A DNA stretch of 64,000 nucleotides from an uncultured Eubacteriales bacterium (lineage in GTDB: Bacteria > Bacillota > Clostridia > Oscillospirales > CAG-272): contig CAKSAC010000004.1 of assembly GCA_934434925.1 (NCBI GenBank), forward strand, positions 67,388 to 131,387. Direction: 5' to 3'. Shown one piece after another: positions 43,073 to 55,310 of this stretch (its first letter is position 1; the number at the start of each line of letters is the position of its first letter). The translations under genes and the position numbers were made by a program. The notes beneath the pieces are model-generated. The model did not search any database and had not been told where the DNA came from. It saw only the letters and a program-made list of their open reading frames with translations.

Positions 43073-43122
43073 TATACTGGTAGAAACGGTTCTCTACCCG
43101 TATGGAAAGGTGGGCTTTTCTC

Positions 43123-43830
43123 ATGGCTTACGCATTCACTTCCCCGGCGTTTCATCTGATCTCTCTGCTGCTCGGCATCGGGAGTCCCCAATCTTTTCCT
43201 CCCCCGCTCCCCAAAAGCGAAGAGGCGGAGCTTTTTTGCAGAATGAAGCAAAAAGACGGTGCCGCCAGACAAAAACTGATTGAACACAATCTCCGGCTCG
43301 TCGCGCATGTCGTCCGCAAATACTATACGTCTTACCACAACCCGGATGAACTCGTTTCGATCGGCAGTCTCGGGCTGATTAAGGCAATCGATTCCTTTAA
43401 TTGCGAAAACGGCGCACGTTTCGCTACATATGCGGCCAAATGCGTTCAGAACGAGATTCTGATGTTTTTCCGTTCGCAAAAACGCCTGTCCTGCGAAGTC
43501 TCCATCAATGAAACCATCGATGTGGACCGTGACGGCAACCCGCTTGCTTATATCGATGTCATCAGTTCCGATGAAAATATCACCAAAGAACTCGATATCA
43601 AGATTCATGCCGAAAAAGCCTACCGGCTGATCGAAGAGGTGCTTGACCCGCGGGAAAGACGCGTGATCATCCTGCGGTACGGTCTCGGGAAAAATCCGCC
43701 CCTGACGCAGCGCCAGGTTGCCGAAGCGATGGGCATTTCGCGTTCCTATGTCAGCCGGATTGAAAAAAAGGCGCTCTCGCGGATGCGGGAACGCTTCGGT
43801 TCTTTCATTCCTTCTTTCGAGGATTCCTGA
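43123..43830 (+). CDS. sigK: sporulation sigma factor SigK (pro-sigma-K), uninterrupted
   Basis: Pro-sequence ..LLLGIGSPQSFPPPLPKSEE, then LIEHNLRLVAHVVRKY, ATYAAKCVQNEILMFFRS and SYVSRIEKKAL. ATG 43123 is preferred over 43102 because the GAAAGGTGGG RBS lies between them. Confidence 0.88.
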   Translation: MAYAFTSPAFHLISLLLGIGSPQSFPPPLPKSEEAELFCRMKQKDGAARQKLIEHNLRLVAHVVRKYYTSYHNPDELVSIGSLGLIKAIDSFNCENGARFATYAAKCVQNEILMFFRSQKRLSCEVSINETIDVDRDGNPLAYIDVISSDENITKELDIKIHAEKAYRLIEEVLDPRERRVIILRYGLGKNPPLTQRQVAEAMGISRSYVSRIEKKALSRMRERFGSFIPSFEDS

Positions 43831-44199: not shown

Positions 44200-44324
44200 A
44201 AACTGCGGCTCGCGCAGTCTCTTTCAAAAAATCGCGTAAAGTGCGCGCTTGCCGGGGGCAGACGAACAAGATCGTCTGCCTTTCTTCTGCCCGGCGGCCG
44301 AATGCGGGTAAAAACGCTGTGCGG

Positions 44325-44396
44325 CCGGCGCGGGTGGGCATGCCTTTTGTCGGCGCGAAAGCGACCGGCGCGGGTGGGCATGCCTTTTGTCGGCGC
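44325..44396. repeat. 32-nt direct repeat x2 (period 40)
   Basis: ccggcgcgggtgggcatgccttttgtcggcgc occurs at 44325-44356 and again, identical, at 44365-44396. Confidence 0.9.
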
Positions 44397-44427
44397 AGAG
44401 CCGGAACTGCGACGTTTCTCTTCGGTC

Positions 44428-44456
44428 TTGAATTATGCGCGCGCCTGTGGTATACT
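44428..44456 (+). promoter_or_regulatory. sigma-70 promoter TTGAAT-17-TATACT (TG-extended)
   Basis: -35 at 44428-44433, TGg at 44448-44450, -10 at 44451-44456. Upstream of the LysR gene. Confidence 0.65.
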
Positions 44457-44506
44457 GGTCTTGCATATTTCTCTGCTTTTTGAAACCGACAACGGAAGGA
44501 GACAAA

Positions 44507-45436
44507 ATGAACTTATTGTATCTCAAATACGCAATCGAGGTTGCTTCCAGCGGCTCTATCAACAAGGCGGCGGAAAAACTGTACATGGATCAACCGAACC
44601 TCAGCCGCTGTATCAAAGACCTTGAATCCTCTCTCGGCGTCAGCATCTTCGCCCGTTCCGCAAAAGGAATGAAAGTCACGCCCGAAGGAGAGGAATTTCT
44701 GAAATTTGCGGAAAGCATTCTCAAGCAGGTTGACACTGTCGAAAACATGTTCCGGAAAGACTATTCGGAAAAGAAGCGCTTTTCGATCTCCGTGCCGAGA
44801 GCAAGCTATATCTGCGAGGCCTTCTCTGCTTTTTCGCAAAATCTGCCGACCGACGGCGGGTTTGAGATTTTTTACAAAGAAACAAACGCCAACCGGGCCA
44901 TCAAAAACATCCTGGAAGAGAATTATCGCCTCGGGATTCTCCGTTACGCCGAGCATTATGAAAAATATTATAAAGATATGCTGGACAGCCGCGGGATGAC
45001 ATATGAGCTGATTGCCGAATTCCGCTACGAGCTGATTATGAGCAAAGCGTCTCCGCTTGCATCCTTGTCGGAAATCGGTTTTTCGGATCTTGCGGATAAA
45101 ATCGAGATCGCCCATGCGGACCCCTATGTTCCCTCGCTCCCGCTGGCCGAAGTGAAGAAAGAGGAACTGCCCGAAATGGAAAAAAGAATCTTTGTTTTTG
45201 AACGGGCCAGCCAGTTTGAACTGCTCGCCAAAAACCCGAACACCTTCATGTGGGTCTCCCCTGTTCCCGAATCGGTTCTCCATCATTACGGATTGCTGCA
45301 AAGGCGTTGCGCCGAAAATAAAAAAACATATAAAGATTTTCTCGTCCGCAAAAAGGATTATCGGTTGACCGACCTCGATAAATCCTTCATTACCGAACTG
45401 TGCCGTGTGAAACGCGAATTATTCAAAGCGGATTGA
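44507..45436 (+). CDS. LysR-family transcriptional regulator
   Basis: Start at MNLLYLKYAIEVASSGSINKAAEKLYMDQPNLSRCIKDLE (HTH) with a GGAAGGAG RBS. LysR substrate-binding-like C-terminus. Confidence 0.88.
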   Translation: MNLLYLKYAIEVASSGSINKAAEKLYMDQPNLSRCIKDLESSLGVSIFARSAKGMKVTPEGEEFLKFAESILKQVDTVENMFRKDYSEKKRFSISVPRASYICEAFSAFSQNLPTDGGFEIFYKETNANRAIKNILEENYRLGILRYAEHYEKYYKDMLDSRGMTYELIAEFRYELIMSKASPLASLSEIGFSDLADKIEIAHADPYVPSLPLAEVKKEELPEMEKRIFVFERASQFELLAKNPNTFMWVSPVPESVLHHYGLLQRRCAENKKTYKDFLVRKKDYRLTDLDKSFITELCRVKRELFKAD

Positions 45437-45467
45437 CCCTTCGTTTTCAAGTCAAAAACGTCAAAAT

Positions 45468-45506
45468 CCCCGGAAGAAAAAAGATTTTCCGGGGGTTTCT
45501 TTATTT
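45468..45506 (+). terminator. rho-independent terminator after the LysR gene
   Basis: Stem CCCCGGAA (45468-45475) / TTCCGGGG (45487-45494) followed by a T-rich tract. Confidence 0.7.
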
Positions 45507-45610
45507 CGTTCCGCGTTATATCGATACATACAATACCGATATGCGAAATCAACCATTCCGTTTTATGCAAAAATGTTGCATACTGGTAGTGAAAGAAAGG
45601 AGTGGTGCGC

Positions 45611-46201
45611 TTGATATCCAGAGCAACGCTCGGCAGATTGCCGACTTATCTCAAATATCTGCGTTCGCTTCCGCCCTCTGATGAAGAAATCTCCGCGGCC
45701 GCTATTGCGCGATGTCTTTCCCTCGGCGATGTGCAGGTGCGCAAGGACCTGGCCTCGGTCGGAGGAAACGGAAAGCCGAAGGTGGGTTACAGAATCTCCG
45801 AACTGATCGCCTGTATGGAAAGCGTGCTGTCGGACACGGCCCCGCGGGAAGCGGTCATTGTCGGAGCGGGAAAGCTCGGCAGTGCGCTTCTCGGATACAA
45901 CGGGTTTTCCGAATACGGTATCGTCGTTTTGAAAGCGTTTGATACCGACGACGCAAAAATCGGGCAAAATGTCCGGCCGATCGGTGAACTGCACGCCTAT
46001 TGTGCGCTCCATCAGATCGAACTCGGCATTCTGACCGTTCCCCCCGCCGCCGCACAGCAAGCTGCGGAAGAAATGGTGCGGTGCGGAATCCGGGCCATCT
46101 GGTGCTTTTCTTCCGCTCATCTGGAACTTCCGCACGACGTGGTCGTGCAATATGAAAATCTTGCGCTTTCTCTCGCACATCTCCAAGCCAAAACAGAATA
46201 A
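45611..46201 (+). CDS. rex: redox-sensing transcriptional repressor Rex
   Basis: ISRATLGRLPTYLKYL wHTH, then the Rossmann motif VIVGAGKLGSAL. The track start GTG 45602 overlaps the AAGGAG RBS (45597-45602), so in-frame TTG 45611 is preferred. Start is uncertain by 3 codons. Confidence 0.88.
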   Translation: MISRATLGRLPTYLKYLRSLPPSDEEISAAAIARCLSLGDVQVRKDLASVGGNGKPKVGYRISELIACMESVLSDTAPREAVIVGAGKLGSALLGYNGFSEYGIVVLKAFDTDDAKIGQNVRPIGELHAYCALHQIELGILTVPPAAAQQAAEEMVRCGIRAIWCFSSAHLELPHDVVVQYENLALSLAHLQAKTE

Positions 46202-46228
46202 TTTTGATTATATACAAAGGAGGTTTCT

Positions 46229-48943
46229 ATGGAAATCAAGGAAAGGCAGATTGTTGACAACCTGGAAAGCCTGGAAGCGGCCATTGCCCGCGTCCGGGAA
46301 GCGCAACGGGTATTCGCCGCTTACACGCAGGAACAGGTTGACAAAATCTTCAAAGCCGCGGCGATGGCCGCCAACCGGGCGCGGATTCCGCTTGCCAGAC
46401 TGGCGGTGGAAGAGACGGGCATGGGTGTTTTGGAAGACAAGGTCATCAAGAACAACTACGCCGCCGAATATATCTATAATGCTTATAAAAACACCAAAAC
46501 CTGCGGCGTGATTGAAGAAGACCCGGCATACGGCATCAAAAAAATCGCCGAGCCGATCGGCGTCATCGCGGCGGTCATTCCCACGACCAACCCGACATCG
46601 ACCGCAATCTTCAAAGCCCTGCTTGCCTTGAAGACCCGCAACGCCATTATCATCAGCCCCCATCCGAGAGCCAAAAAAGCGACCATCGCCGCCGCCGAGC
46701 TTATTCTGCATGCGGCAGTCGAAGCGGGCGCGCCCGAGGGGATCATCGACTGGATTGATGTTCCGTCGCTCGATATGACAAATCTTGTGATGAAAGAATC
46801 CGACATCATTCTGGCAACGGGCGGCCCCGGCATGGTAAAGGCCGCATATTCTTCCGGGAAACCGGCGCTCGGTGTCGGTGCGGGAAACACGCCGGCCATC
46901 ATCGATGAAACAGCGGACGTTGTTCTCGCCGTCTCGTCGGTCATTCACTCCAAAACCTTTGACAACGGTATGATCTGCGCCTCGGAGCAATCGGTCATCG
47001 TTCATAAGAATATATACGACACGGTCAAGGCCGAATTCGCCGCGAGAGGTTGTTATTTCCTGAATCCGGAAGAGACCGAGAAGGTCCGCAAGACCATCCT
47101 GATCAACGGCGCATTGAACGCAAAAATCGTCGGGCAAAAAGCCGCAAAGATTGCAGAACTCGCGGGGGTCACGGTTCCCGCCGGAACAAAGATTCTGATC
47201 GGCGAAGTGGAAAGCGTGGAGTTATCCGAAGAGTTTGCGCACGAAAAGCTCTCCCCCGTCCTCGCCATGTACCGGGCGGAAGATATTCAGGACGCGTTCA
47301 CCAAAGCGGAACATCTGATTGCCGACGGCGGATACGGCCATACCTCTTCCATTTATCTGAACGCCGAGACCGAGCAGGAAAAACTCCGGGAATTCGCCGC
47401 GCGGATGAAGACCTGCCGGATCCTTGTGAACACCCCTTCCTCTCACGGCGGAATCGGCGATCTTTATAATTTCAAACTCGCGCCGTCCTTAACGCTCGGT
47501 TGCGGTTCCTGGGGAGGCAACAGCGTATCGGAAAATGTGGGCGTCAAGCACCTGATCAATATCAAGACAGTCGCCGAAAGGAGAGAAAACATGCTCTGGT
47601 TCCGCGCTCCCGAAAAAGTTTATATCAAAAAAGGTTGTCTGCCGGTTGCTCTTTCCGAACTCAAAACCGTCATGGGCAAAAAGCGTGCCTTTATCGTCAC
47701 GGACACTTTCCTCTACAACAACGGCTACACAAGACCCATCGAAGAAAAACTCGATGAAATGGGCATCGTCCATGAAACCTTCTTTGATGTCGCGCCCGAC
47801 CCGACGCTGGCCTGCGCAAAAGCCGGCGCGGAACTGATGCGCTCCTTCCGCCCCGATACCATCATCGCGCTCGGCGGCGGGTCTGCCATGGATGCCGGGA
47901 AGATCATGTGGGTCATGTACGAACATCCCGAAGTTGACTTCCAGGATATGGCCATGCGTTTCATCGATATACGCAAGAGAGTTTACACCTTCCCGAAGAT
48001 GGGAGAAAAAGCCTATTTCATCGCCGTTCCGACTTCTGCGGGTACCGGCTCGGAAGTCACCCCCTTCGCCGTAATCACCGATCAGGAGAGCGGTATCAAG
48101 TATCCGCTTGCCGATTACGAACTTCTCCCGAACATGGCAATCATCGACACGGACTTCCACATGACGGCTCCGCGGGGGCTGACCGCCGCATCCGGCATTG
48201 ACGCTGTCTCTCACGCACTGGAAGCCTACGCGTCCGTAATGGCGACCGACTATACCGACGGGCTTGCCAAGCAGGCGTTGAAGACCATCTTCCGATATCT
48301 GCCGAGAGCCTATGATAACGGCCAGACCGATGTGGAAGCAAGAGAGAAAATGGCGAACGCCGCAACCATGGCGGGCATGGCGTTTGCGAACGCGTTTCTC
48401 GGTGTCTGCCACTCGATGGCGCATAAACTCGGCGCGTTCCATCATATCCCGCACGGAGTTGCGAACGCCTTGATGCTGGAAGAAGTCCTCCGCTTCAACT
48501 CTGCCGAAGCTCCTGTCAAAATGGGTACCTTCTCGCAATATGATCACCCGCACACCCTTGAAAGATATGCCGAAATTGCCGACGCGCTCGGCCTCGGCGG
48601 CAAGACCGACACGGAAAAACTGAAAAATCTCATCAAAGCCGTCAATGACCTCAAAGCAAGAGTCGGGATCAAACCGACAATCCGGGATTATGTTCCCGAC
48701 GAAGCGGGTTTCCTCGCCAGCCTTGACGAGATGACCGAGCAGGCGTTCGACGATCAATGCACAGGCGCAAACCCGAGATACCCGCTCATGAGCGAGATCC
48801 GGCAGATGTACCTCAACGCCTACTACGGCAAGCACTTTGTCGAACCCGATATGCCCCGGGCGGCCGGCGTTTCCGTCGCAGATGACGCGCACAATTTCAA
48901 GCAGGCATTCCGCCGCGCAAAAAGCGGAATGAACAAAGCATAA
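46229..48943 (+). CDS. adhE: bifunctional acetaldehyde-CoA / alcohol dehydrogenase
   Basis: 904 aa. N-terminal ALDH domain (catalytic FDNGMICASEQ) and C-terminal iron-ADH domain (GGGSAMDAGK, HxxxH region CHSMAHKLG). Confidence 0.95.
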   Translation: MEIKERQIVDNLESLEAAIARVREAQRVFAAYTQEQVDKIFKAAAMAANRARIPLARLAVEETGMGVLEDKVIKNNYAAEYIYNAYKNTKTCGVIEEDPAYGIKKIAEPIGVIAAVIPTTNPTSTAIFKALLALKTRNAIIISPHPRAKKATIAAAELILHAAVEAGAPEGIIDWIDVPSLDMTNLVMKESDIILATGGPGMVKAAYSSGKPALGVGAGNTPAIIDETADVVLAVSSVIHSKTFDNGMICASEQSVIVHKNIYDTVKAEFAARGCYFLNPEETEKVRKTILINGALNAKIVGQKAAKIAELAGVTVPAGTKILIGEVESVELSEEFAHEKLSPVLAMYRAEDIQDAFTKAEHLIADGGYGHTSSIYLNAETEQEKLREFAARMKTCRILVNTPSSHGGIGDLYNFKLAPSLTLGCGSWGGNSVSENVGVKHLINIKTVAERRENMLWFRAPEKVYIKKGCLPVALSELKTVMGKKRAFIVTDTFLYNNGYTRPIEEKLDEMGIVHETFFDVAPDPTLACAKAGAELMRSFRPDTIIALGGGSAMDAGKIMWVMYEHPEVDFQDMAMRFIDIRKRVYTFPKMGEKAYFIAVPTSAGTGSEVTPFAVITDQESGIKYPLADYELLPNMAIIDTDFHMTAPRGLTAASGIDAVSHALEAYASVMATDYTDGLAKQALKTIFRYLPRAYDNGQTDVEAREKMANAATMAGMAFANAFLGVCHSMAHKLGAFHHIPHGVANALMLEEVLRFNSAEAPVKMGTFSQYDHPHTLERYAEIADALGLGGKTDTEKLKNLIKAVNDLKARVGIKPTIRDYVPDEAGFLASLDEMTEQAFDDQCTGANPRYPLMSEIRQMYLNAYYGKHFVEPDMPRAAGVSVADDAHNFKQAFRRAKSGMNKA

Positions 48944-48954
48944 GGAGAGAAAGT

Positions 48955-49704
48955 ATGAATCTTGACAGAATTATCGCGGTCAGAAACAATAAAACCGTCT
49001 ACCGCGACGGCGACCTCTGCATGAAGGTGTTTGACGCGTCGTATTCCAAAGCCGACGTGCTGAATGAAGCGTTGAACCAGGCGAGAGTCGAAGAAACAGA
49101 CCTGCACGTTCCGAAAATTCACGAAGTGACAATCATCGACGGGAAATGGACGATCGTGACCGATTATATCAAAGGAAAAACGCTTGCGCAACTGATGCAG
49201 GAGAACCCGGAAAAGAAAAACGAATACCTGGAACTCTTCGTTGATCTGCAAATGGAAGTGCAATCAAAGACCTGCCCCCTGCTCACAAAACTGAAAGACA
49301 AGATGAACCGGAAAATCTCACAGACGGATTTTGACGCGACTACGCGCTATGAGTTGCACACCCGTCTTGACGGCATGCCGAAACACACAAAACTCTGCCA
49401 CGGCGATTTCTCCCCCCAAAACATCATCATCCGGGAAGACGGAACGCCTTTTATTCTCGACTGGGCGCATGCAACACAGGGAAACGCCTCCGCCGATGTG
49501 GCAAGGACCTATCTGCTCTTCTGGCTGGACGGAGACATTGACGGGGCGGAAAAATACCTCGACCTGTTCTGCGCGAAAAGCCATACCGAGAAGCAGTACG
49601 TTCAGAAATGGATGCCGATTGTCGCGGCTTCCCAAACGGTCAAGGGCAATGAAAAAGAACGCGAATTTCTCCATTCATGGGTAGATGTCGTTGATTACGA
49701 ATAA
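48955..49704 (+). CDS. aminoglycoside-phosphotransferase / choline-kinase-fold protein kinase-like protein
   Basis: 249 aa. Brenner-type catalytic loop CHGDFSPQNIII and metal-binding ILDW. Small N-lobe with an invariant-Lys-like CMKVF. Confidence 0.7.
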   Translation: MNLDRIIAVRNNKTVYRDGDLCMKVFDASYSKADVLNEALNQARVEETDLHVPKIHEVTIIDGKWTIVTDYIKGKTLAQLMQENPEKKNEYLELFVDLQMEVQSKTCPLLTKLKDKMNRKISQTDFDATTRYELHTRLDGMPKHTKLCHGDFSPQNIIIREDGTPFILDWAHATQGNASADVARTYLLFWLDGDIDGAEKYLDLFCAKSHTEKQYVQKWMPIVAASQTVKGNEKEREFLHSWVDVVDYE

Positions 49705-49715
49705 AGGAGTATGAA

Positions 49716-49961
49716 ATGAAAGTAACGGTTTGTATCGGTTCTTCCTGCCATATTAAAGGGTCGCGGCAGGTTGTGGAAGGGTTGCAGTATTACATCAACG
49801 AAGCGGGTCTTGGAGACAAAGTGGAACTCGGCGGAACCTTCTGTATGGGCAAATGTCAGCTCGGAGTCTGCGTGAATGTGGATGAAAAATTGTTTTCGGT
49901 CACGCCGGAAACCGTCAAAGAGTTTTTTGATAAAGAGATCAAAGCGAAGATACAGAAATGA
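49716..49961 (+). CDS. thioredoxin-like [2Fe-2S] ferredoxin (NuoE/HydC-type fold), copy 1
   Basis: 81 aa. Cys pattern C-x4-C (CIGSSC) ... C-x3-C (CMGKC). Confidence 0.75.
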   Translation: MKVTVCIGSSCHIKGSRQVVEGLQYYINEAGLGDKVELGGTFCMGKCQLGVCVNVDEKLFSVTPETVKEFFDKEIKAKIQK

Positions 49962-50242
49962 TATTCGTTGAAGTGTGCGTCGGCAGTTCCTGCCACCTGA
50001 AAGGAGCTCCCCGGATTGTGGAGTTGCTCCGGGAGAAAATCGAAAAAGAAAATTTGGACGGCGAAATTGTGCTGACCGGGGCTTTTTGCCGCGGTCGATG
50101 CAATCGCATCGGCGTGACCGTCTCGGTGGACGATGAAGTGTATACGGGTGTCACGCCCGAAGGGTTCGGCGATTTTTGGGAAAAAACGGTGTTGCCCGCC
50201 ATGGAGAAAGCAAAGGAGAAGGAAACGTGTCGGAATGTTTAA
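49958..50242 (+). CDS. thioredoxin-like [2Fe-2S] ferredoxin, copy 2
   Basis: 94 aa. CVGSSC ... CRGRC. ATGA overlap with copy 1. Confidence 0.75.
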   Translation: MIFVEVCVGSSCHLKGAPRIVELLREKIEKENLDGEIVLTGAFCRGRCNRIGVTVSVDDEVYTGVTPEGFGDFWEKTVLPAMEKAKEKETCRNV

Positions 50243-51903
50243 CGCTGAAAAAATCGAACTGCAAAAACTGCTATAAATGCATAAGACATTGCCCGGTGAA
50301 ATCGATTCGGTTCTCCGGGAACCAAGCGCATATCATCGGAAACGAATGTATCCTTTGCGGCCATTGCTTTGTGGTTTGTCCGCAAAACGCCAAGCAGATC
50401 GTGGACGAGACCGAAAAGGTGAAGGTCCTGATCCAGTCCGGCGCGCCCGTCTATGCAAGCGTTGCCCCCTCTTTTATTGCCAACTACCCCGGCGTGGGTA
50501 TCGGCGGCATGAAGAAGGCTCTTCAGAAACTCGGGTTTGCGAATGCGGAAGAAACCGCGCTGGGCGCAACGATCGTCAAAAAGGAGTATGAACGGATCCT
50601 TTCCGAAAAAACAAGGGATATTGTCATTTCTTCCTGCTGTCATTCGATCAATCTGCTGATTCAGAAATATTTTCCCTCCCTTCTCCCCTGCCTTGCCGAT
50701 GTCATGTCTCCCATGCAGGCACACTGCGCCGAAATCAAAAAGAAACACGCGGGAGCAAAAACCGTTTTCATCGGGCCGTGCGTTTCCAAAAAAGACGAGG
50801 CCCAGCATTACGAAGGGATTGTGGACGCGGTTCTGACCTTTGAAGAACTGACCGAATGGATGAAGGCGGAACATATTGTTTTGGAGCCGGATATGGACGC
50901 AACCGAAAAGAGCCTCGCCCGCTTCTTCCCGACGACCGGCGGGATTTTGAAGACCATGGAACAGAACGCGCCGGGTTATACGTATCTGGCCATTGACGGC
51001 GTTGAAAGCTGCATGGCCGCGCTGAAAGAAGCGGAACGCGGGAATATACACAAATGTTTTATTGAAATGTCCGCCTGTGTCGGCGGTTGCGTCGGCGGCC
51101 CCGTCATGGAAAAATATCATCGCTCGCCGGTAGGCGATTATCAATCCGTCGCAAATTACGCCGGAAAGAAAGATTTTGACATTGCACAGCCGGACCCGCT
51201 TGAAATCAGAAAACACTTTGAGCCGATCGAACGGAGAAACCGGATGCCGTCCGAAGAAGAAATCAGGGAAATCCTCGGGAAAATGGGGAAAAACCGACCG
51301 GAAGACGAATTGAACTGCGGCTCCTGCGGCTACAATACCTGCCGGGAAAAAGCCATCGCAATATACCACGGCAAAGCCGAGATTTCCATGTGTCTGCCGT
51401 ATCTGAAAGAAAAAGCCGAGAGCTTTTCCGACTGTATCGTGTCCAATACGCCGAACGGGCTGATCGTTGTCAATGACGCGCTGGAAGTACAGCAAATCAA
51501 TCCGGCGGCGCTCAGAATCCTGAATATCCGGCAGGCCTCGGACGTTCTCGGCGATCAGGTGGTGCGCATTCTCGACCCCAAGCCTTTTGCGGAGGTCTTA
51601 GAAAGCAAAAGAAGCATCCGCGACCACAGAACCTACCTTGCGGAATACAATCGGTATGTGGAAGAGACCGTAATCTATGACGCAACCTATCACATGCTCC
51701 TTTGCATTATGCGCGACGTCACCGAAGAGGAGACCGAGCGGGAAAAACGCATGAAACAGCACAACCAGACCGTGGAGACCGCCGACAAAGTGGTCGATAA
51801 GCAAATGCGTATCGTGCAGGAGATCGCTTCCCTGCTCGGAGAGACCGCCGCAGAAACCAAGATCGCCTTAACCAAACTGAAGGAGAGTTTTTCCGATGAA
51901 TGA
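50227..51903 (+). CDS. hydS: sensory-type [FeFe] hydrogenase-like protein with C-terminal Cys4 motif and PAS domain (HydS type)
   Basis: GTG 50227 after an AAGGAGAAGGA RBS. Two ferredoxin-type CxxCxxCxxxCP motifs. H-domain motifs SSCCHS / GPCVSKKDE / EMSACVGGCVGGP. Then C-x2-C-x4-C-x16-C (CGSCGYNTC..C) and a PAS-like segment. Confidence 0.85.
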   Translation: MSECLTLKKSNCKNCYKCIRHCPVKSIRFSGNQAHIIGNECILCGHCFVVCPQNAKQIVDETEKVKVLIQSGAPVYASVAPSFIANYPGVGIGGMKKALQKLGFANAEETALGATIVKKEYERILSEKTRDIVISSCCHSINLLIQKYFPSLLPCLADVMSPMQAHCAEIKKKHAGAKTVFIGPCVSKKDEAQHYEGIVDAVLTFEELTEWMKAEHIVLEPDMDATEKSLARFFPTTGGILKTMEQNAPGYTYLAIDGVESCMAALKEAERGNIHKCFIEMSACVGGCVGGPVMEKYHRSPVGDYQSVANYAGKKDFDIAQPDPLEIRKHFEPIERRNRMPSEEEIREILGKMGKNRPEDELNCGSCGYNTCREKAIAIYHGKAEISMCLPYLKEKAESFSDCIVSNTPNGLIVVNDALEVQQINPAALRILNIRQASDVLGDQVVRILDPKPFAEVLESKRSIRDHRTYLAEYNRYVEETVIYDATYHMLLCIMRDVTEEETEREKRMKQHNQTVETADKVVDKQMRIVQEIASLLGETAAETKIALTKLKESFSDE

Positions 51904-53068
51904 CCTTTGCGCCGATATCGGGTACAAAAGCATCAACCATGCCGGCGAACAGCTTTGCGGCGATCATGTGGACGTTGTGGAGCAGGAGGACGGGTCTTCG
52001 GTCGTTGTGCTGGCAGATGGTCTCGGGAGCGGGGTCAAAGCAAGCATCCTGTCAACCCTGACGAGCAAGATTATCTCTACGATGATTGCCGAGGGGCTTT
52101 CCTTGTCCGATTGCGTCGAGACCATCGCGCAGACTTTACCGATCTGCTCTGTGCGCGGGGTCGCCTATTCTACCTTCACCATCATGCGTCTGGTTGAAAA
52201 TCGGGAAATGGAGTTGATCCAGTACGATAATCCTCTGACCATCCTGCTCCGCAACGGGCAGAACTGCACTTACCCGAAAACCGAGATGAACATTGAAGGG
52301 AAAAAAATCTATCACTCGCTGATCAGATTGCAGGAAGGCGACACCTTTATCGCCATGAGCGACGGCTGTCCGCATGCGGGGATCGGGCTTGCTTATAATT
52401 TCGGTTGGAAACGCGAAGACATTATCGATTTCATGGTGGCGACGACAGCGGGCGGGTACGCCGCAAAAACCCTGGCAACCATTTTGCTTGAAGAAGTGGA
52501 TAAATTATACGGTCATCAGCCGGGGGATGATGCCACCGCCTGCGTCATAAAAATCCGTAAGCGCGTACCGATGAACATACTCTTCGGCCCTCCCCGGGAC
52601 AGGGATGACTGCAACCGCATGATGTCGCTCTTCTTTTCAAAAGAAGGGAAACATATCGTCTGCGGCGGAACGACTGCGTCGATTGCCGCAAAATACCTCG
52701 GCAAAAAAGTCGAGGCTGACATTTGTTTTGCCCGTTCGGACATTCCGCCGATTGCAAAGATCGAAGGGGTGGACCTCGTCACGGAAGGGGTCATTACCGT
52801 CAACCGGGTGGTGGAATACGCGCATGACGCACTCGGGGAAAACAAACTCTATGAAAAGTGGAGTTTCGGCCATGACGGAGCGTCCCTCATTTGCAGAATG
52901 CTGTTTGAAGAGGCGACAGATATCAATTTTTACGTCGGGCGCGCAGTCAATCCCGCCCATCAGAACCCGGAGCTGCCCATCAATTTCAATATCAAGATGA
53001 ACCTGGTGGAAGAGCTTTCCGGATGCCTGCGGCAGATGGGAAAACGTATCAAAGTCAGTTACTTCTGA
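51896..53068 (+). CDS. SpoIIE/PP2C-family protein phosphatase with ~190-aa C-terminal domain of unknown function
   Basis: HAGEQLCGDHV..VVVLADGLGSGVKAS..AMSDGCPHAG (PP2C metal-binding aspartates). 8-nt overlap with hydS. The C-terminal half is unrecognised. Confidence 0.8.
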   Translation: MNDLCADIGYKSINHAGEQLCGDHVDVVEQEDGSSVVVLADGLGSGVKASILSTLTSKIISTMIAEGLSLSDCVETIAQTLPICSVRGVAYSTFTIMRLVENREMELIQYDNPLTILLRNGQNCTYPKTEMNIEGKKIYHSLIRLQEGDTFIAMSDGCPHAGIGLAYNFGWKREDIIDFMVATTAGGYAAKTLATILLEEVDKLYGHQPGDDATACVIKIRKRVPMNILFGPPRDRDDCNRMMSLFFSKEGKHIVCGGTTASIAAKYLGKKVEADICFARSDIPPIAKIEGVDLVTEGVITVNRVVEYAHDALGENKLYEKWSFGHDGASLICRMLFEEATDINFYVGRAVNPAHQNPELPINFNIKMNLVEELSGCLRQMGKRIKVSYF

Positions 53069-53080
53069 AAGGAGTCTCCC

Positions 53081-54502
53081 GTGAGAAAATTCGATACGAA
53101 AGTGCAACATCTGAAATATAAGGTTTTGCGCGAAGTGGCAAGACAGGCGTGGGACGATACTTTGCAGGACAATCTGCTCGACATACCCAAGATTATCGTT
53201 CCCGGGAAGGTCCCCACCATGCGTTGCTGTGTGTACAAAGAACGCGCCATCCTTGCCGAGCGGGTGAAACTCGCCATGGGGGGGAACAAACAGAACCCGA
53301 ATGTCATTGAAGTGATTGACATTGCCTGCGATGAATGCCCCATGGGCGGATATGAAGTGACAAACGCCTGCCGGGGATGTCTCGCCCATCGTTGTGAAGA
53401 CGCATGCAAATTCGGCGCGATTACCTTTGATGAAAATCACGTTGCGCATATCGACAAGAGCAAATGCCGGGAATGCGGTGCCTGCTCCGGCGTATGCCCT
53501 TACAGCGCCATTCACAACTACAAACGCCCCTGCGAAACCGCCTGCAAAGTCAAGGCGATCACCATGGGGGAAGACAAGCAGGCGTGCATCGATAACAGCA
53601 AGTGCATTTCCTGCGGCGCTTGCGTATATGCCTGCCCCTTCGGCGCTATTAACGACAAGTCCTATATTCTGAATGTCATTGATATGCTGAAAGGAAGTCA
53701 CGGCAATCAGCATTATAAAATTTATGCCATCGTGGCTCCGTCGATTTCCAGCCAGTTCACTTACGCAAAACTCGGCCAGGTCATCACCGGACTGCGCAAG
53801 CTCGGCTTCCACACGGTCATTGAAGCGGCGCTCGGCGCCGATATGGTGGCGCAGGCCGAGGCGGCGGAACTCGCCGAAAAGGGTTTTCTCACCAGCTCGT
53901 GCTGCCCGGCGTTTGTCGATTACATTCAAAAGAATTTCCCGCAATTTTTACCCTATGTCTCGCATAATCTCTCTCCCATGGCGACTATCGCAAAATACGT
54001 GAAAGAACATGAAAAGAACTGTAAAACCGTCTTTATCGGCCCCTGTACCGCCAAAAAAGCCGAAGTGCAGAAAGAGCGCGTCCGTCCTTATGTTGACGCT
54101 GTCCTGACCTTTGAAGAATTGCAGGCGCTGTTTGACAGCCGGGAAATCGATATCACGTCGCTCAACGAGGATGTTCTGGACAACGCCTCGTATTTCGGCA
54201 GAATCTTTGCGCGCTCCGGCGGTCTTTCGGATGCCGTTGCCGAAGCGATAAAAGAGCAAGACCTTTCTTTTGTTCTCTCCCCCTGCGTCTGTGACGGCAT
54301 TGAACAATGCAAGGTGGCGCTTTTGCAAAAGAAGGCGGGAAAACTGCAGGCGAACTTTATAGAAGGCATGGCCTGCGTCGGCGGCTGTATCGGCGGCGCG
54401 GGGTGCCTCACGCATGGTGAAAAAAACAAGGCGGAAGTGGATAAATACGGAAAAGAGGCGCTGGAAAAAACCATACGGGATGCCATTGCTGTATTGAAAT
54501 AA
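53081..54502 (+). CDS. hydA: [FeFe] hydrogenase, catalytic type (monomeric, ferredoxin-domain N-terminus; HydA2-like)
   Basis: GTG start after an AAAGGAG RBS. Several 4Fe-4S motifs (CRECGACSGVCP, CISCGACVYACP). Canonical H-cluster motifs TSSCCPAF / GPCTAKKAE / EGMACVGGCIGG. Confidence 0.88.
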   Translation: MRKFDTKVQHLKYKVLREVARQAWDDTLQDNLLDIPKIIVPGKVPTMRCCVYKERAILAERVKLAMGGNKQNPNVIEVIDIACDECPMGGYEVTNACRGCLAHRCEDACKFGAITFDENHVAHIDKSKCRECGACSGVCPYSAIHNYKRPCETACKVKAITMGEDKQACIDNSKCISCGACVYACPFGAINDKSYILNVIDMLKGSHGNQHYKIYAIVAPSISSQFTYAKLGQVITGLRKLGFHTVIEAALGADMVAQAEAAELAEKGFLTSSCCPAFVDYIQKNFPQFLPYVSHNLSPMATIAKYVKEHEKNCKTVFIGPCTAKKAEVQKERVRPYVDAVLTFEELQALFDSREIDITSLNEDVLDNASYFGRIFARSGGLSDAVAEAIKEQDLSFVLSPCVCDGIEQCKVALLQKKAGKLQANFIEGMACVGGCIGGAGCLTHGEKNKAEVDKYGKEALEKTIRDAIAVLK

Positions 54503-54506
54503 CGCT

Positions 54507-54614
54507 CCCGAAAACATGCCGTTTTCCGAAAGTATGCCGTTTCCCGAAGGTATGCCGTTTCCCGAAAGTATGCCGTTCCCCGAAGGTATGCCGTTTCCTG
54601 AAAGTATGCCGTTT
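54507..54614. repeat. 18-bp tandem repeat x6 immediately after hydA
   Basis: Units cccgaaaacatgccgttt / tccgaaagtatgccgttt / cccgaaggtatgccgttt / cccgaaagtatgccgttc / cccgaaggtatgccgttt / cctgaaagtatgccgttt. The array starts 5 nt after the stop. Confidence 0.92.
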
Positions 54615-54661
54615 CCTGCCGTCCGGCGACGCGGGAGCAGCCTGTTCTTTCATCACAAAAG

Positions 54662-54697
54662 CACGGAGTCTGTACAGATTCCGTGTTTTTATTTTTT
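54662..54697 (+). terminator. rho-independent terminator closing the rex-hydA block
   Basis: CACGGAGTCTG-ta-CAGATTCCGTG followed by TTTTTATTTTTT. Confidence 0.8.
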
Positions 54698-54890
54698 GCA
54701 GCGTCGTCTCTTTTTCAAACCGCCGTCGGAGACGTTTTTTTGTCGGAAAAGGACGGAAAATCATAGACTGAAAATGACCGGTTTTTTGGCGGAGAGTGAC
54801 TGAAACCGGCCTTCCCCGTCCAAAATAAGTAAAAGGCTATCCGGGATTAAAACTTATACGCTGAAAGGAAATCCGTTTCGGAAAACGAAC

Positions 54891-55310
54891 ATGAATGTGA
54901 AACGCGGAGACATTTATTATGCCGACCTCAGCCCCGTCGTCGGCAGTGAACAAGGCGGGTTGCGCCCCGTCCTCATCATCCAGAACGATATCGGCAACCG
55001 GTACAGTCCGACCGTGATTGCCGCGGCCATCACCAGCCGGATGGGAAAAAACAAATTACCGACGCATATCGAAGTCTACGCCGGAAAGGTCGGCCTTTCG
55101 CGCGACTCGGTCATCCTGCTTGAACAGATCCGGACGCTGGATAAACGCCGCCTCCGGGAAAAAATGGGGCATCTTGACGAAGAAGTCATGACCCGCGTCA
55201 ACAGCGCCATCTCTGTCAGTTTCGGACTTACGATGCCGGCCGTTGCCGCAGATACATCTCCAAAACCTTTCGGAGCCGAGGCACCGGACGGACTCACCGA
55301 AGTTTTTTAA
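54891..55310 (+). CDS. mazF: MazF/PemK (EndoA-type) endoribonuclease toxin with C-terminal extension; no adjacent antitoxin
   Basis: [46 protein letters not shown]...[20 protein letters not shown] is almost colinear with B. subtilis EndoA as I recall it. About 24 extra C-terminal residues. Confidence 0.88.

Follow-up and report, generated by a model that had tools for sequence, protein, structure and literature searches.

An uncultured gut clostridium carries an orthologue of the Ruminococcus albus eight-gene hydrogenase operon, with a LysR gene and a conserved dyad as candidate outputs of its putative H2 sensor

In fermenters of the gut and rumen, the partial pressure of H2 decides between the formation of acetate plus H2 and the formation of ethanol, a choice that bears on methane emission, gut gas and biofuel yields. 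How the H2 level might be sensed and relayed to the ethanol branch is the question raised by a locus in an uncultured Eubacteriales bacterium (GTDB lineage CAG-272; GenBank assembly GCA_934434925.1, contig CAKSAC010000004.1, positions 67,388 to 131,387), of which a stretch of 64,000 nucleotides, here called the window, was analysed. Within it, eight genes encode the NADH sensor Rex, the alcohol dehydrogenase AdhE, an APH-fold phosphotransferase, two small 2Fe-2S proteins, the hydrogenase-like protein HydS, a PP2C-type phosphatase and the hydrogenase HydA2. The initial annotation, made from the sequence without database searches, put this block forward as a hydrogen- and redox-sensing phospho-signalling module that was under-described and had no visible output partner. 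Here, we report that the locus reproduces, in a gut bacterium, an eight-gene operon described before, and that nothing in the window is categorically new. A comparison of about 160 related loci separates an invariant core from optional genes, and the region upstream of the operon holds a LysR-type regulator gene and a conserved operator-like dyad through which the phosphatase might act.

The operon, its products and its described counterpart

The described counterpart lies on plasmid pRUMAL01 of Ruminococcus albus 7 (NC_014824.1, 138999-147916), where the same eight genes stand in the same order, with a LysR gene directly upstream and an ATCGAT dyad in the promoter region. Identities between the encoded proteins lie between 51 and 77%: PP2C is 76% identical, HydA2 75%, AdhE 74%, HydS 68.8% (tblastn against plasmids) and Rex just 51%. 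A megablast search against plasmids returned short adhE matches only. The organisms differ: the window comes from an uncultured gut/rumen lineage of Clostridia, and its relatives carry the labels Eubacterium sp. CAG:180, Acutalibacteraceae and Ruminococcus.

The R. albus cluster has been in the literature since 2014 (Zheng et al. 2014; Greening et al. 2019). In papers that summarise it, HydS is put forward as an H2 sensor whose PAS domain relays the signal to the neighbouring kinase. On pRumal01, HydA2 and HydS make up a transcription unit, and the transcripts of the "putative eight-gene cluster" fall 111-fold in co-culture with an H2 consumer; the authors of the co-culture work suggest that H2 is sensed directly, by way of the group C hydrogenase and its phosphatase. 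HydDB catalogues the sensor class as [FeFe] group C3, "phosphatase-linked (putative)", with its role listed as undetermined. The block itself, published with transcript data and with its class catalogued as C3, can thus no longer be called under-described; that description still fits the mechanism. Papers of 2025-2026 continue to describe the mechanism, interaction partners and role of sensory hydrogenases as unresolved, in keeping with the earlier remark that neither the phospho-substrate nor the signalling logic is established. The parallels that had been drawn, with the R. albus HydS/HydA2/AdhE unit and with the hfs genes of Thermoanaerobacterium, are also sound.

The features of the locus, from upstream to downstream, are as follows.

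44507-45436, plus strand: LysR-type regulator, 309 residues from an internal Met (the open reading frame begins at 44435); Pfam HTH_1 4e-17
45464-45498, plus strand: intrinsic terminator, 14-bp stem and T-run, end of the LysR transcript
45519-45541, no strand assigned: conserved dyad TATCGATA-N7-TACCGATA, two ATCGAT-type palindromes 15 bp apart; candidate operator between the LysR terminator and rex
45556-45584, plus strand: predicted promoter, with a weak -35 TTCCGT (45556-45561), a 17-nt spacer and a -10 CATACT (45579-45584)
45611-54502, plus strand: the eight genes in one direction, rex-adhE-APH-fold phosphotransferase-2Fe-2S-2Fe-2S-hydS-PP2C-hydA2
45611-46201, plus strand: Rex, NADH/NAD+-sensing repressor, first gene of the operon; NF003994, 207 bits (cut-off 130)
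46229-48943, plus strand: AdhE, bifunctional acetaldehyde-CoA/alcohol dehydrogenase (ethanol branch, NADH sink); NF010378, 1388 bits (cut-off 951)
48955-49704, plus strand: APH/choline-kinase-fold phosphotransferase, 249 residues; Pfam APH 9e-14, RIO1 9e-8
49716-49961, plus strand: thioredoxin-like [2Fe-2S] ferredoxin 1, NuoE/HydC-like, 81 residues; PF01257 5.5e-7
49958-50242, plus strand: thioredoxin-like [2Fe-2S] ferredoxin 2, 94 residues; PF01257 6e-8
50227-51903, plus strand: HydS, putative sensory [FeFe] hydrogenase of group C3 type; Fe_hyd_lg_C 3.8e-48
51896-52555, plus strand: PP2C (SpoIIE/RsbU-type) domain, residues 1-220; SpoIIE 1.9e-15 (whole gene 51896-53068)
52556-53068, plus strand: conserved C-terminal alpha/beta domain of the PP2C protein, residues 221-390; motifs GPP, CGGTT, EGxDLVTEG, DGAS and NPAHQ
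53081-54502, plus strand: HydA2, group B monomeric [FeFe] hydrogenase; TIGR04105 FeFe_hydrog_B1, 574.5 bits (cut-off 450), residues 4-445
54657-54690, plus strand: intrinsic terminator, 15-bp stem and T-run, end of the operon

The layout proposed earlier is confirmed. The eight genes are co-directional, their recomputed junctions (+27, +11, +11, -4, -16, -8 and +12 nt) are the same as before, and Pfam and NCBIfam confirm the domain assignments. Public gene calls on a contig with an identical PP2C agree for nine products, LysR included (LysR 309, Rex 196, AdhE 904, APH 249, 2Fe-2S proteins 81 and 94, HydS 558, SpoIIE 390 and HydA 473 residues). The two terminators said to bracket the block are real, each being followed by a T-run: the upstream one folds at -20.0 kcal/mol (z -3.56; 0 of 200 shuffles as stable) and the downstream one at -19.7 kcal/mol (z -5.47). 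Other terminator-like sites on the plus strand between Rex and HydA2 are 5-pair stems only, and the scan as a whole gave 27 sites against a shuffled expectation of 17.6 +/- 4.9. Given the short or negative junctions and the bracketing terminators, it is reasonable to predict one transcription unit. No riboswitch or leader RNA of any Rfam family was found at E<=0.1 across 44300-55000.

HydS carries the features expected of the altered hydrogenase that had been described at this position, namely changed motifs, a Cys4 motif and a PAS domain. Numbered from the open reading frame at 50176, it comprises two [4Fe-4S] sites (residues 25-72), the H-domain (91-309), a Cys4 Fe-S motif (379-408; PF04060, 2.3e-10), a PAS domain (421-517) and a conserved helical tail; the PAS_9/PAS matches (1e-4 to 2e-4) lie under the Pfam gathering scores, yet are consistent over three PAS models. 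The likely start of hydS is the GTG at 50227, which has AAGGAG in front. All three Cys motifs of the H-cluster are present (SSCCH, FIGPC and EMSACVGGC). In CpI numbering, M353 is replaced by Gly and M497 by Ser, which are the changes described for sensory enzymes, and the C299-equivalent Cys (in SSCCH) is retained. TmHydS, the model sensor of group C, has an Ala (A131) in place of this Cys. By its sequence, HydS belongs to HydDB [FeFe] group C3, the phosphatase-linked putative sensors. Its gene overlaps that of PP2C by 8 nt, in agreement with the translational coupling that had been noted.

The phosphatase domain is of the SpoIIE/RsbX type in profile searches against the PDB (5e-19 to 3e-8) and matches 3pu9, SpoIIE and the RsbU domain of Rv1364c by Foldseek (E 1e-15 to 1e-13). 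Its metal-binding Asp residues D23, D41, D156, D211 and D212 are invariant among 48 sequences, down to 35% identity, so that catalysis is under selection. The AlphaFold2 model of the full-length protein has a predicted local distance difference test score (pLDDT) of 89 and a predicted template modelling score (pTM) of 0.89; that of the C-terminal domain alone has a pLDDT of 90.9. A profile search of this C-terminal half, which had been suggested earlier, defines a conserved family that lacks a Pfam model: Pfam is silent for the last 170 residues, and the domain recurs in 1063 representative clusters (E<=1e-3), mostly PP2C fusions of about 390 residues. In Foldseek searches against the PDB its best matches are the methylglyoxal synthases (MGS) 1vmd and 1wo8, which are non-significant (E 6e-3, template modelling score 0.39-0.49). 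Its CGGTT motif aligns with the phosphate-binding ATGTTG of MgsA, at an hhalign probability of 3% and thus with no statistical support. Because Pfam is silent and the hhalign match non-significant, with no Pfam MGS match in 31 members of the family, the assignment to MGS was retained as no more than a weak lead. A fused STAS substrate was also considered for this domain and rejected, the predicted fold being a Rossmann-like alpha/beta sandwich rather than STAS.

HydA2 is a hydrogenase, as had been annotated, although not one with fully canonical H-cluster motifs: it has a Gly at the CpI M353 position (FIGPC), a residue reported for the group B enzyme CpIII and typical of group B/CpIII. The first ferredoxin shows the Cys pattern CxxxxC...CxxxC, and the gene of the second overlaps its two neighbours by 4 nt and 16 nt. 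Rex comprises the Pfam domains Put_DNA-bind_N and CoA_binding, with the Rossmann motif GAGKLG; translation of rex likely starts at the TTG at 45611, in a frame that opens at 45602, because a GGAG ribosome-binding site ends at 45602.

An invariant core and its optional additions

A scan with the PP2C alignment, taking one genome per species, found relatives in at least 580 species-level genomes, so that this sensor class is abundant. The best 80 of these, with PP2C at least 75% identical to that of the window, form the close set; they come from metagenome-assembled genomes of gut and rumen Clostridia, Eubacterium sp. CAG:180 and CAG:841, R. bicirculans and Acutalibacteraceae, and were annotated by tblastn with the window proteins. 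The distant set comprises 80 loci on metagenome contigs, collected in a second scan that started from distant homologues; their PP2C shares 38-70% identity with that of the window. The position of each gene relative to PP2C was counted in both sets.

HydS immediately upstream: close 70/70, distant 60/62
2Fe-2S gene upstream: close 64/64, distant 52/56
group B-like HydA2 downstream: close 60/62, distant 40/64
kinase upstream: close 52/60, distant 9/49
AdhE upstream: close 36/47, distant 6/37
Rex upstream: close 27/47, distant 11/37
LysR upstream: close 34/47, distant 8/37

These counts define ferredoxin-HydS-PP2C, beside a catalytic hydrogenase that is usually HydA2, as the invariant module. 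Rex, AdhE, the APH-fold kinase and LysR are frequent but optional additions to this core, and the complete nine-gene arrangement with LysR occurs in 17 of 49 close loci. The co-occurrence of kinase, HydS and PP2C, which had been offered as a check, holds for the HydS-PP2C pair in both sets, and the kinase is not an obligate partner. At seven distant loci (L086, L100, L115, L129, L151, L153 and L164) the core adjoins a HydABC-type set, made up of a NuoF-like HydB, a group A HydA and a NuoE-like protein, which usually replaces the group B HydA2; the sensor module is thus not bound to one class of catalytic hydrogenase. A HydS-like gene of Acetoanaerobium (36% identity) was set aside as a different subgroup because no PP2C gene follows it.

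Other families recur in these neighbourhoods, among them ABC transporter ATPases, HydB, a TnpB-like transposase, a Fur-family regulator and housekeeping genes. The Fur-family gene follows HydA2 in three distant loci (L097:12423-12863, L106 and L109). The statement that the eight products include no STAS or anti-sigma protein is correct, and no such gene recurs in the roughly 160 related loci.

The fold assigned to the kinase was confirmed by a profile search of 48955-49704, which gave APH, ChoK and RIO1. The protein combines the catalytic loop HGDFSPQN (HGDxxxxN) with ILDW...DVA, the choline-kinase/APH signature, and the solved structure that it matches best by sequence is choline kinase 4r77 (E 2e-3), the Bud32 and RIO matches being weaker. 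No match to a Pkinase domain with its DFG...APE activation segment was obtained, so that the protein is not of the Hanks type; from its sequence, it could act either on proteins, as an atypical protein kinase, or on small molecules. Where present, the gene always lies directly 5' of the 2Fe-2S genes, with or without AdhE, Rex and LysR, and this constant place indicates that the kinase belongs functionally with the core.

Residue 50 of PP2C, in helix alpha1 beside the DGLGSG metal motif, reads Ser at 92% of the loci with the kinase and Asn at most of those without it. The position sits in the regulatory "switch" region of the phosphatase family, and the Ser/Asn split is probably a phylogenetic effect. 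S50 and T192 of PP2C were considered as kinase-linked phospho-acceptors and discarded, since the pattern is explained by phylogeny and Ser or Thr also occurs in 14 and 13, respectively, of 45 kinase-less sequences.

LysR, Rex and a conserved dyad in the promoter region

The initial annotation held that the block has no visible output partner and no DNA-binding protein other than Rex. Both statements fail upstream of rex. A LysR-type gene lies 130 nt outside the limits then drawn for the block, is syntenic in R. albus and accompanies the operon in 34 of 47 close relatives; together with the operator-like dyad conserved in the promoter region, it offers a candidate output or activator of the operon. 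The DNA-binding domain and linker helix of this LysR protein align to BenM, CysB, CcpC and OxyR, and its nearest NCBIfam models are GltC, AlsR and CidR, all under the cut-off.

The dyad has a single good match in the window and is almost identical in the R. albus promoter region. It is matched at 16 of 16 positions in 13 related loci, and at 14 or more of 16 in 26 of 33 rex-first promoters, that of the window included, versus 20 of 3000 background windows. Under a stricter definition (ATCGAT-N8/9-AYCGAT, at most one mismatch), the dyad is present in 33 of 39 rex-containing operons versus 2 of 63 rex-less ones; of the 19 loci in this second group with a LysR gene, one carries it. Perfect copies are concentrated at the operon: across 2.36 Mb, 30 of 34 sit fewer than 400 nt ahead of a gene of the operon. 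Of the remaining four, three lie near other redox genes. In L060 a perfect dyad just after the LysR gene precedes inserted genes for an iron-type alcohol dehydrogenase (Fe-ADH), a short-chain dehydrogenase/reductase and NfnA/NfnB-like proteins (L060:1195-5807), and in L149 one at the same place precedes inserted NfnA/NfnB-like genes (L149:4071-6556), the insertions lying between LysR and rex in both; in L058 a perfect dyad lies between an Fe-ADH gene and rex (L058:2210-3540). From these positions, the dyad appears to mark a small set of redox-balancing transcription units, and the L060, L149 and L058 copies suggest a small dyad-controlled redox regulon.

The promoter of the window was predicted by reading and by-eye alignment with orthologous upstream regions; a consensus scan did not find it. 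Its -10 CATACT aligns with an extended -10 conserved in the relatives (TGnTATACT or TGnTATAAT), and the dyad keeps a fixed distance from this element, its centre lying about 50 nt upstream. The dyad centre thus falls near -60 from the predicted start, a position typical of activators. When the locus is judged as an operon of a LysR-type transcriptional regulator (LTTR), it has an adjacent LTTR gene and a dyad near -60, where a site near -65 would be expected, but the dyad tracks rex more than LysR and there is no textbook T-N11-A box. Covariation of the recognition helices yielded no residues that discriminate between LysR and Rex as the binder of the dyad.

The operon-encoded Rex proteins (the window and L001-L165) form a distinct clade, with the wing GxGKPKxGY and without the FG that follows the recognition helix. 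The corresponding wing of Bacillus subtilis and Clostridium acetobutylicum Rex reads GxxGxxGYGY. No Rex box with three or fewer mismatches occurs within 45400-54700, and the five matches elsewhere in the window are at chance level. Among the related loci, the clostridial Rex box TTGTTAA-N4-TTAACAA lies over the -10 in 24 of 63 rex-less operons, 8 of 39 rex-containing operons and 28 of 3000 background windows.

A perfect 7-bp inverted repeat at 45564-45582, TATGCAA-N5-TTGCATA, is unique in the window and overlaps the predicted spacer and -10. It was considered as an operator and set aside, not being conserved in R. albus or in the closest relative.

Two neighbouring genes lie outside the operon. 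A SigK/SigE-type sporulation sigma factor is encoded at 43102-43830 on the plus strand (NF004471, 258.6 bits), two genes upstream of LysR. As a partner of the SpoIIE-type phosphatase it was rejected, being a sporulation sigma factor with no synteny in R. albus, and it is probably unrelated to the phosphatase. About 200 nt past the operon terminator, a PemK/MazF-type toxin gene occupies 54891-55310 on the plus strand (4e-37); the public gene calls (L166) contain no antitoxin gene in the 389 nt that separate it from hydA2.

A proposed fermentation switch, its rivals and related systems

We consider it probable, if by no great degree, that this orthologue of the R. albus cluster is a fermentation switch, in which the accumulation of H2 turns on the AdhE NADH sink and the ferredoxin-only H2 producer HydA2. 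H2 binding, contact between HydS and PP2C, and phosphorylation are proposed steps, which we infer from sequence comparison and published data. HydS would bind or slowly turn over H2 at an H-cluster with sensory-type substitutions, while the two small 2Fe-2S proteins would poise HydS or accept its electrons and connect it to the cellular redox pool. The state of HydS would pass through the Cys4 cluster, the PAS domain and the helical tail to the translationally coupled PP2C. As the published hfs genetics and the R. albus transcripts suggest, un-triggered HydS would restrain PP2C, and H2 would relieve the restraint. PP2C would then change the phosphorylation of a target and so raise the expression or activity of the ethanol/H2 branch (AdhE/HydA2), opposed by the APH-fold kinase where that is present, with Rex contributing an NADH/NAD+ input. 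The target that we prefer, as a hypothesis, is the regulator at the ATCGAT dyad of the operon's own promoter region, either the adjacent LysR or the operon's own Rex.

Several observations weigh against this switch or against parts of it. No STAS, HATPase_c or anti-sigma gene was seen in the roughly 160 neighbourhoods, and a cis-encoded regulator is not a universal target, as in Thermoanaerobacterium saccharolyticum and Monoglobus no LysR, Rex or kinase gene accompanies the core. HydS may be more catalytic than the model sensor because it keeps the C299-equivalent Cys that TmHydS lacks, and a simple redox relay through the C-terminal cluster is weakened by the group D enzyme TamHydS, whose C-terminal [4Fe-4S] cluster is not reduced by H2. 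The kinase has a choline-kinase/APH motif typical of small-molecule kinases and is optional, dropping from 52 of 60 close loci to 9 of 49 distant ones, and none of the Ser/Thr columns of the core proteins follows its presence convincingly. There is no canonical Rex box (TTGTKAA-N4-TTMACAA) at the window promoter, the best match in the 265 nt upstream reaching 9 of 14 positions; and Rex and NADH alone could explain the H2 response of the R. albus cluster.

The identity of the dyad-binding protein is where a rival reading comes closest. The dyad may be the operator of the operon-encoded Rex subfamily, its specificity altered, so that the operon is autoregulated and LysR is an unrelated neighbour; we regard this as a real possibility, somewhat short of an even chance. 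The distribution given above speaks for it, the dyad following rex (33/39 versus 2/63) and nearly absent where LysR stands without rex (1/19). Five rex-first loci keep the dyad despite unrelated upstream genes, and L004 and L007 have lost rex and the inner CGAT together while the recognition helix of their LysR is unchanged. By eye, the inner half-sites TCGATAA-N4/5-TTATCGA agree with TTGTTAA-N4-TTAACAA at 5 of 7 positions per half-site, and the Rex proteins concerned form the distinct clade with the GKPK wing. This wing does not discriminate for dyad binding, however, because Rex from dyad-less loci (L147 and L163) has the same recognition helix and wing; moreover, a dyad near -60 suits an activator rather than a repressor, perfect dyads stand directly after the LysR gene in L060 and L149, and the synteny with LysR recurs down to about 55% PP2C identity. 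A fuller version of our preferred reading, in which PP2C, with the kinase where present, acts on dyad-bound LysR or GKPK-wing Rex (operator TCGATAA-N4/5-TTATCGA), H2 drives Ser/Thr phosphorylation or dephosphorylation and thereby the transcription of AdhE, Fe-ADH, NfnAB and HydA2, and the MGS-like domain supplies a second, metabolite input, is improbable in all its parts at once. If true, PP2C acting on a dyad-bound regulator would give an [FeFe] sensory hydrogenase a defined output pathway for the first time.

Dedicated signalling from H2 to transcription may also be dispensed with altogether. Rex would then read NADH/NAD+ and LysR a metabolite, and the 2Fe-2S proteins, HydS, PP2C and HydA2 would form one "Hfs hydrogenase" complex, in which HydS and PP2C tune HydA2 post-translationally, one possible route being the phosphorylation of HydA2, AdhE or a 2Fe-2S protein. 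We think this rather unlikely, for the hfsB deletion raised benzyl-viologen hydrogenase activity and changed adhE transcript levels, the M353/M497 substitutions and the PAS domain of HydS favour a sensor, and the search for a Ser/Thr site linked to the kinase gave none in HydA2, HydS or the 2Fe-2S proteins. It is nevertheless consistent with the identification of hfsABCD as the main H2-forming hydrogenase of T. saccharolyticum, with a 2026 paper that still considers HfsABC possibly a functional hydrogenase, and with shifts in alcohol and aldehyde dehydrogenase activity after hfsB deletion that adhE transcript levels do not wholly explain. The translational coupling of the core genes, their place beside a catalytic hydrogenase (HydA2 in 60/62 close and 40/64 distant loci, a HydABC-type set in several others), the Rex boxes at the -10 of rex-less versions and the retained C299-equivalent Cys point the same way. 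Less probable again is that the APH-fold protein is a small-molecule kinase rather than the antagonist of PP2C, and that the LysR effector domain or the MGS-like C-terminal domain of PP2C binds the product of this enzyme or some other phosphometabolite, gating promoter or phosphatase. The motif and the best matches (APH, TIGR02172 and choline kinase 4r77) fit this, as do the MGS-like fold signal with its CGGTT/ATGTTG alignment and the role of AlsR, CidR and GltC, the nearest relatives of the LysR protein, in overflow metabolism. That fold match is weak, however, in both the structural comparison and the hhalign alignment to MgsA; the N-lobe and catalytic loop also resemble the atypical protein kinases Bud32 and RIO, and the kinase occurs without an adjacent LysR and LysR without the kinase.

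Comparison across the roughly 160 loci reduces the field in which partners and outputs of the sensor are to be sought. The core is set apart as invariant, the kinase proves optional and not of the Hanks type, and a STAS or anti-sigma partner encoded in cis is excluded. Two DNA-binding proteins, LysR and Rex, and a precise 23-bp site are put forward as leads for an acknowledged open question.

Beyond R. albus, the core is shared with hfsABCD of T. saccharolyticum and C. thermocellum, which encode a small Fe-S protein, the PAS-hydrogenase HfsB (HydS), the serine phosphatase HfsC and HfsD (HydA2). The hfs operon as described has four genes, with adhE elsewhere (tsac_0416), whereas the operon in the window adds Rex, the kinase and AdhE under one predicted promoter. 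In T. saccharolyticum, deletion of hfsA or hfsB raises the adhE transcript and ethanol, an effect that requires intact hfsC (PP2C) and hfsD (HydA2) and that places HydS upstream of, and antagonistic to, the phosphatase; hfsB mutations make Thermoanaerobacterium a high-yield ethanologen. With the group C3 enzymes and TmHydS, HydS shares the replacement of M353 and M497, the C-terminal Cys4 motif and the PAS domain, and with group C3 also the adjacent Ser/Thr phosphatase. It differs from TmHydS in keeping the C299-equivalent Cys, where TmHydS has Ala.

The phosphatase domain is of the same type (SpoIIE/RsbU/RsbX) as in the RsbP/RsbU-RsbV-RsbW and SpoIIE-SpoIIAA-SpoIIAB modules, and the PAS domain and helical linker of HydS followed by PP2C would resemble RsbP split into two polypeptides. 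Unlike those modules, the block and its roughly 160 relatives have no STAS substrate, HATPase_c anti-sigma kinase or dedicated sigma factor; the kinase is APH-fold, and PP2C has the extra C-terminal alpha/beta domain. A further parallel is offered by HoxBC-HoxJ-HoxA of Ralstonia eutropha. Its proteins are unrelated, being [NiFe] rather than [FeFe] and a histidine kinase and response regulator rather than PP2C and an atypical kinase, and there the output regulator is known; the logic is the same, with a low-turnover hydrogenase serving as the H2 sensor and hydrogenase genes controlled by protein phosphorylation.

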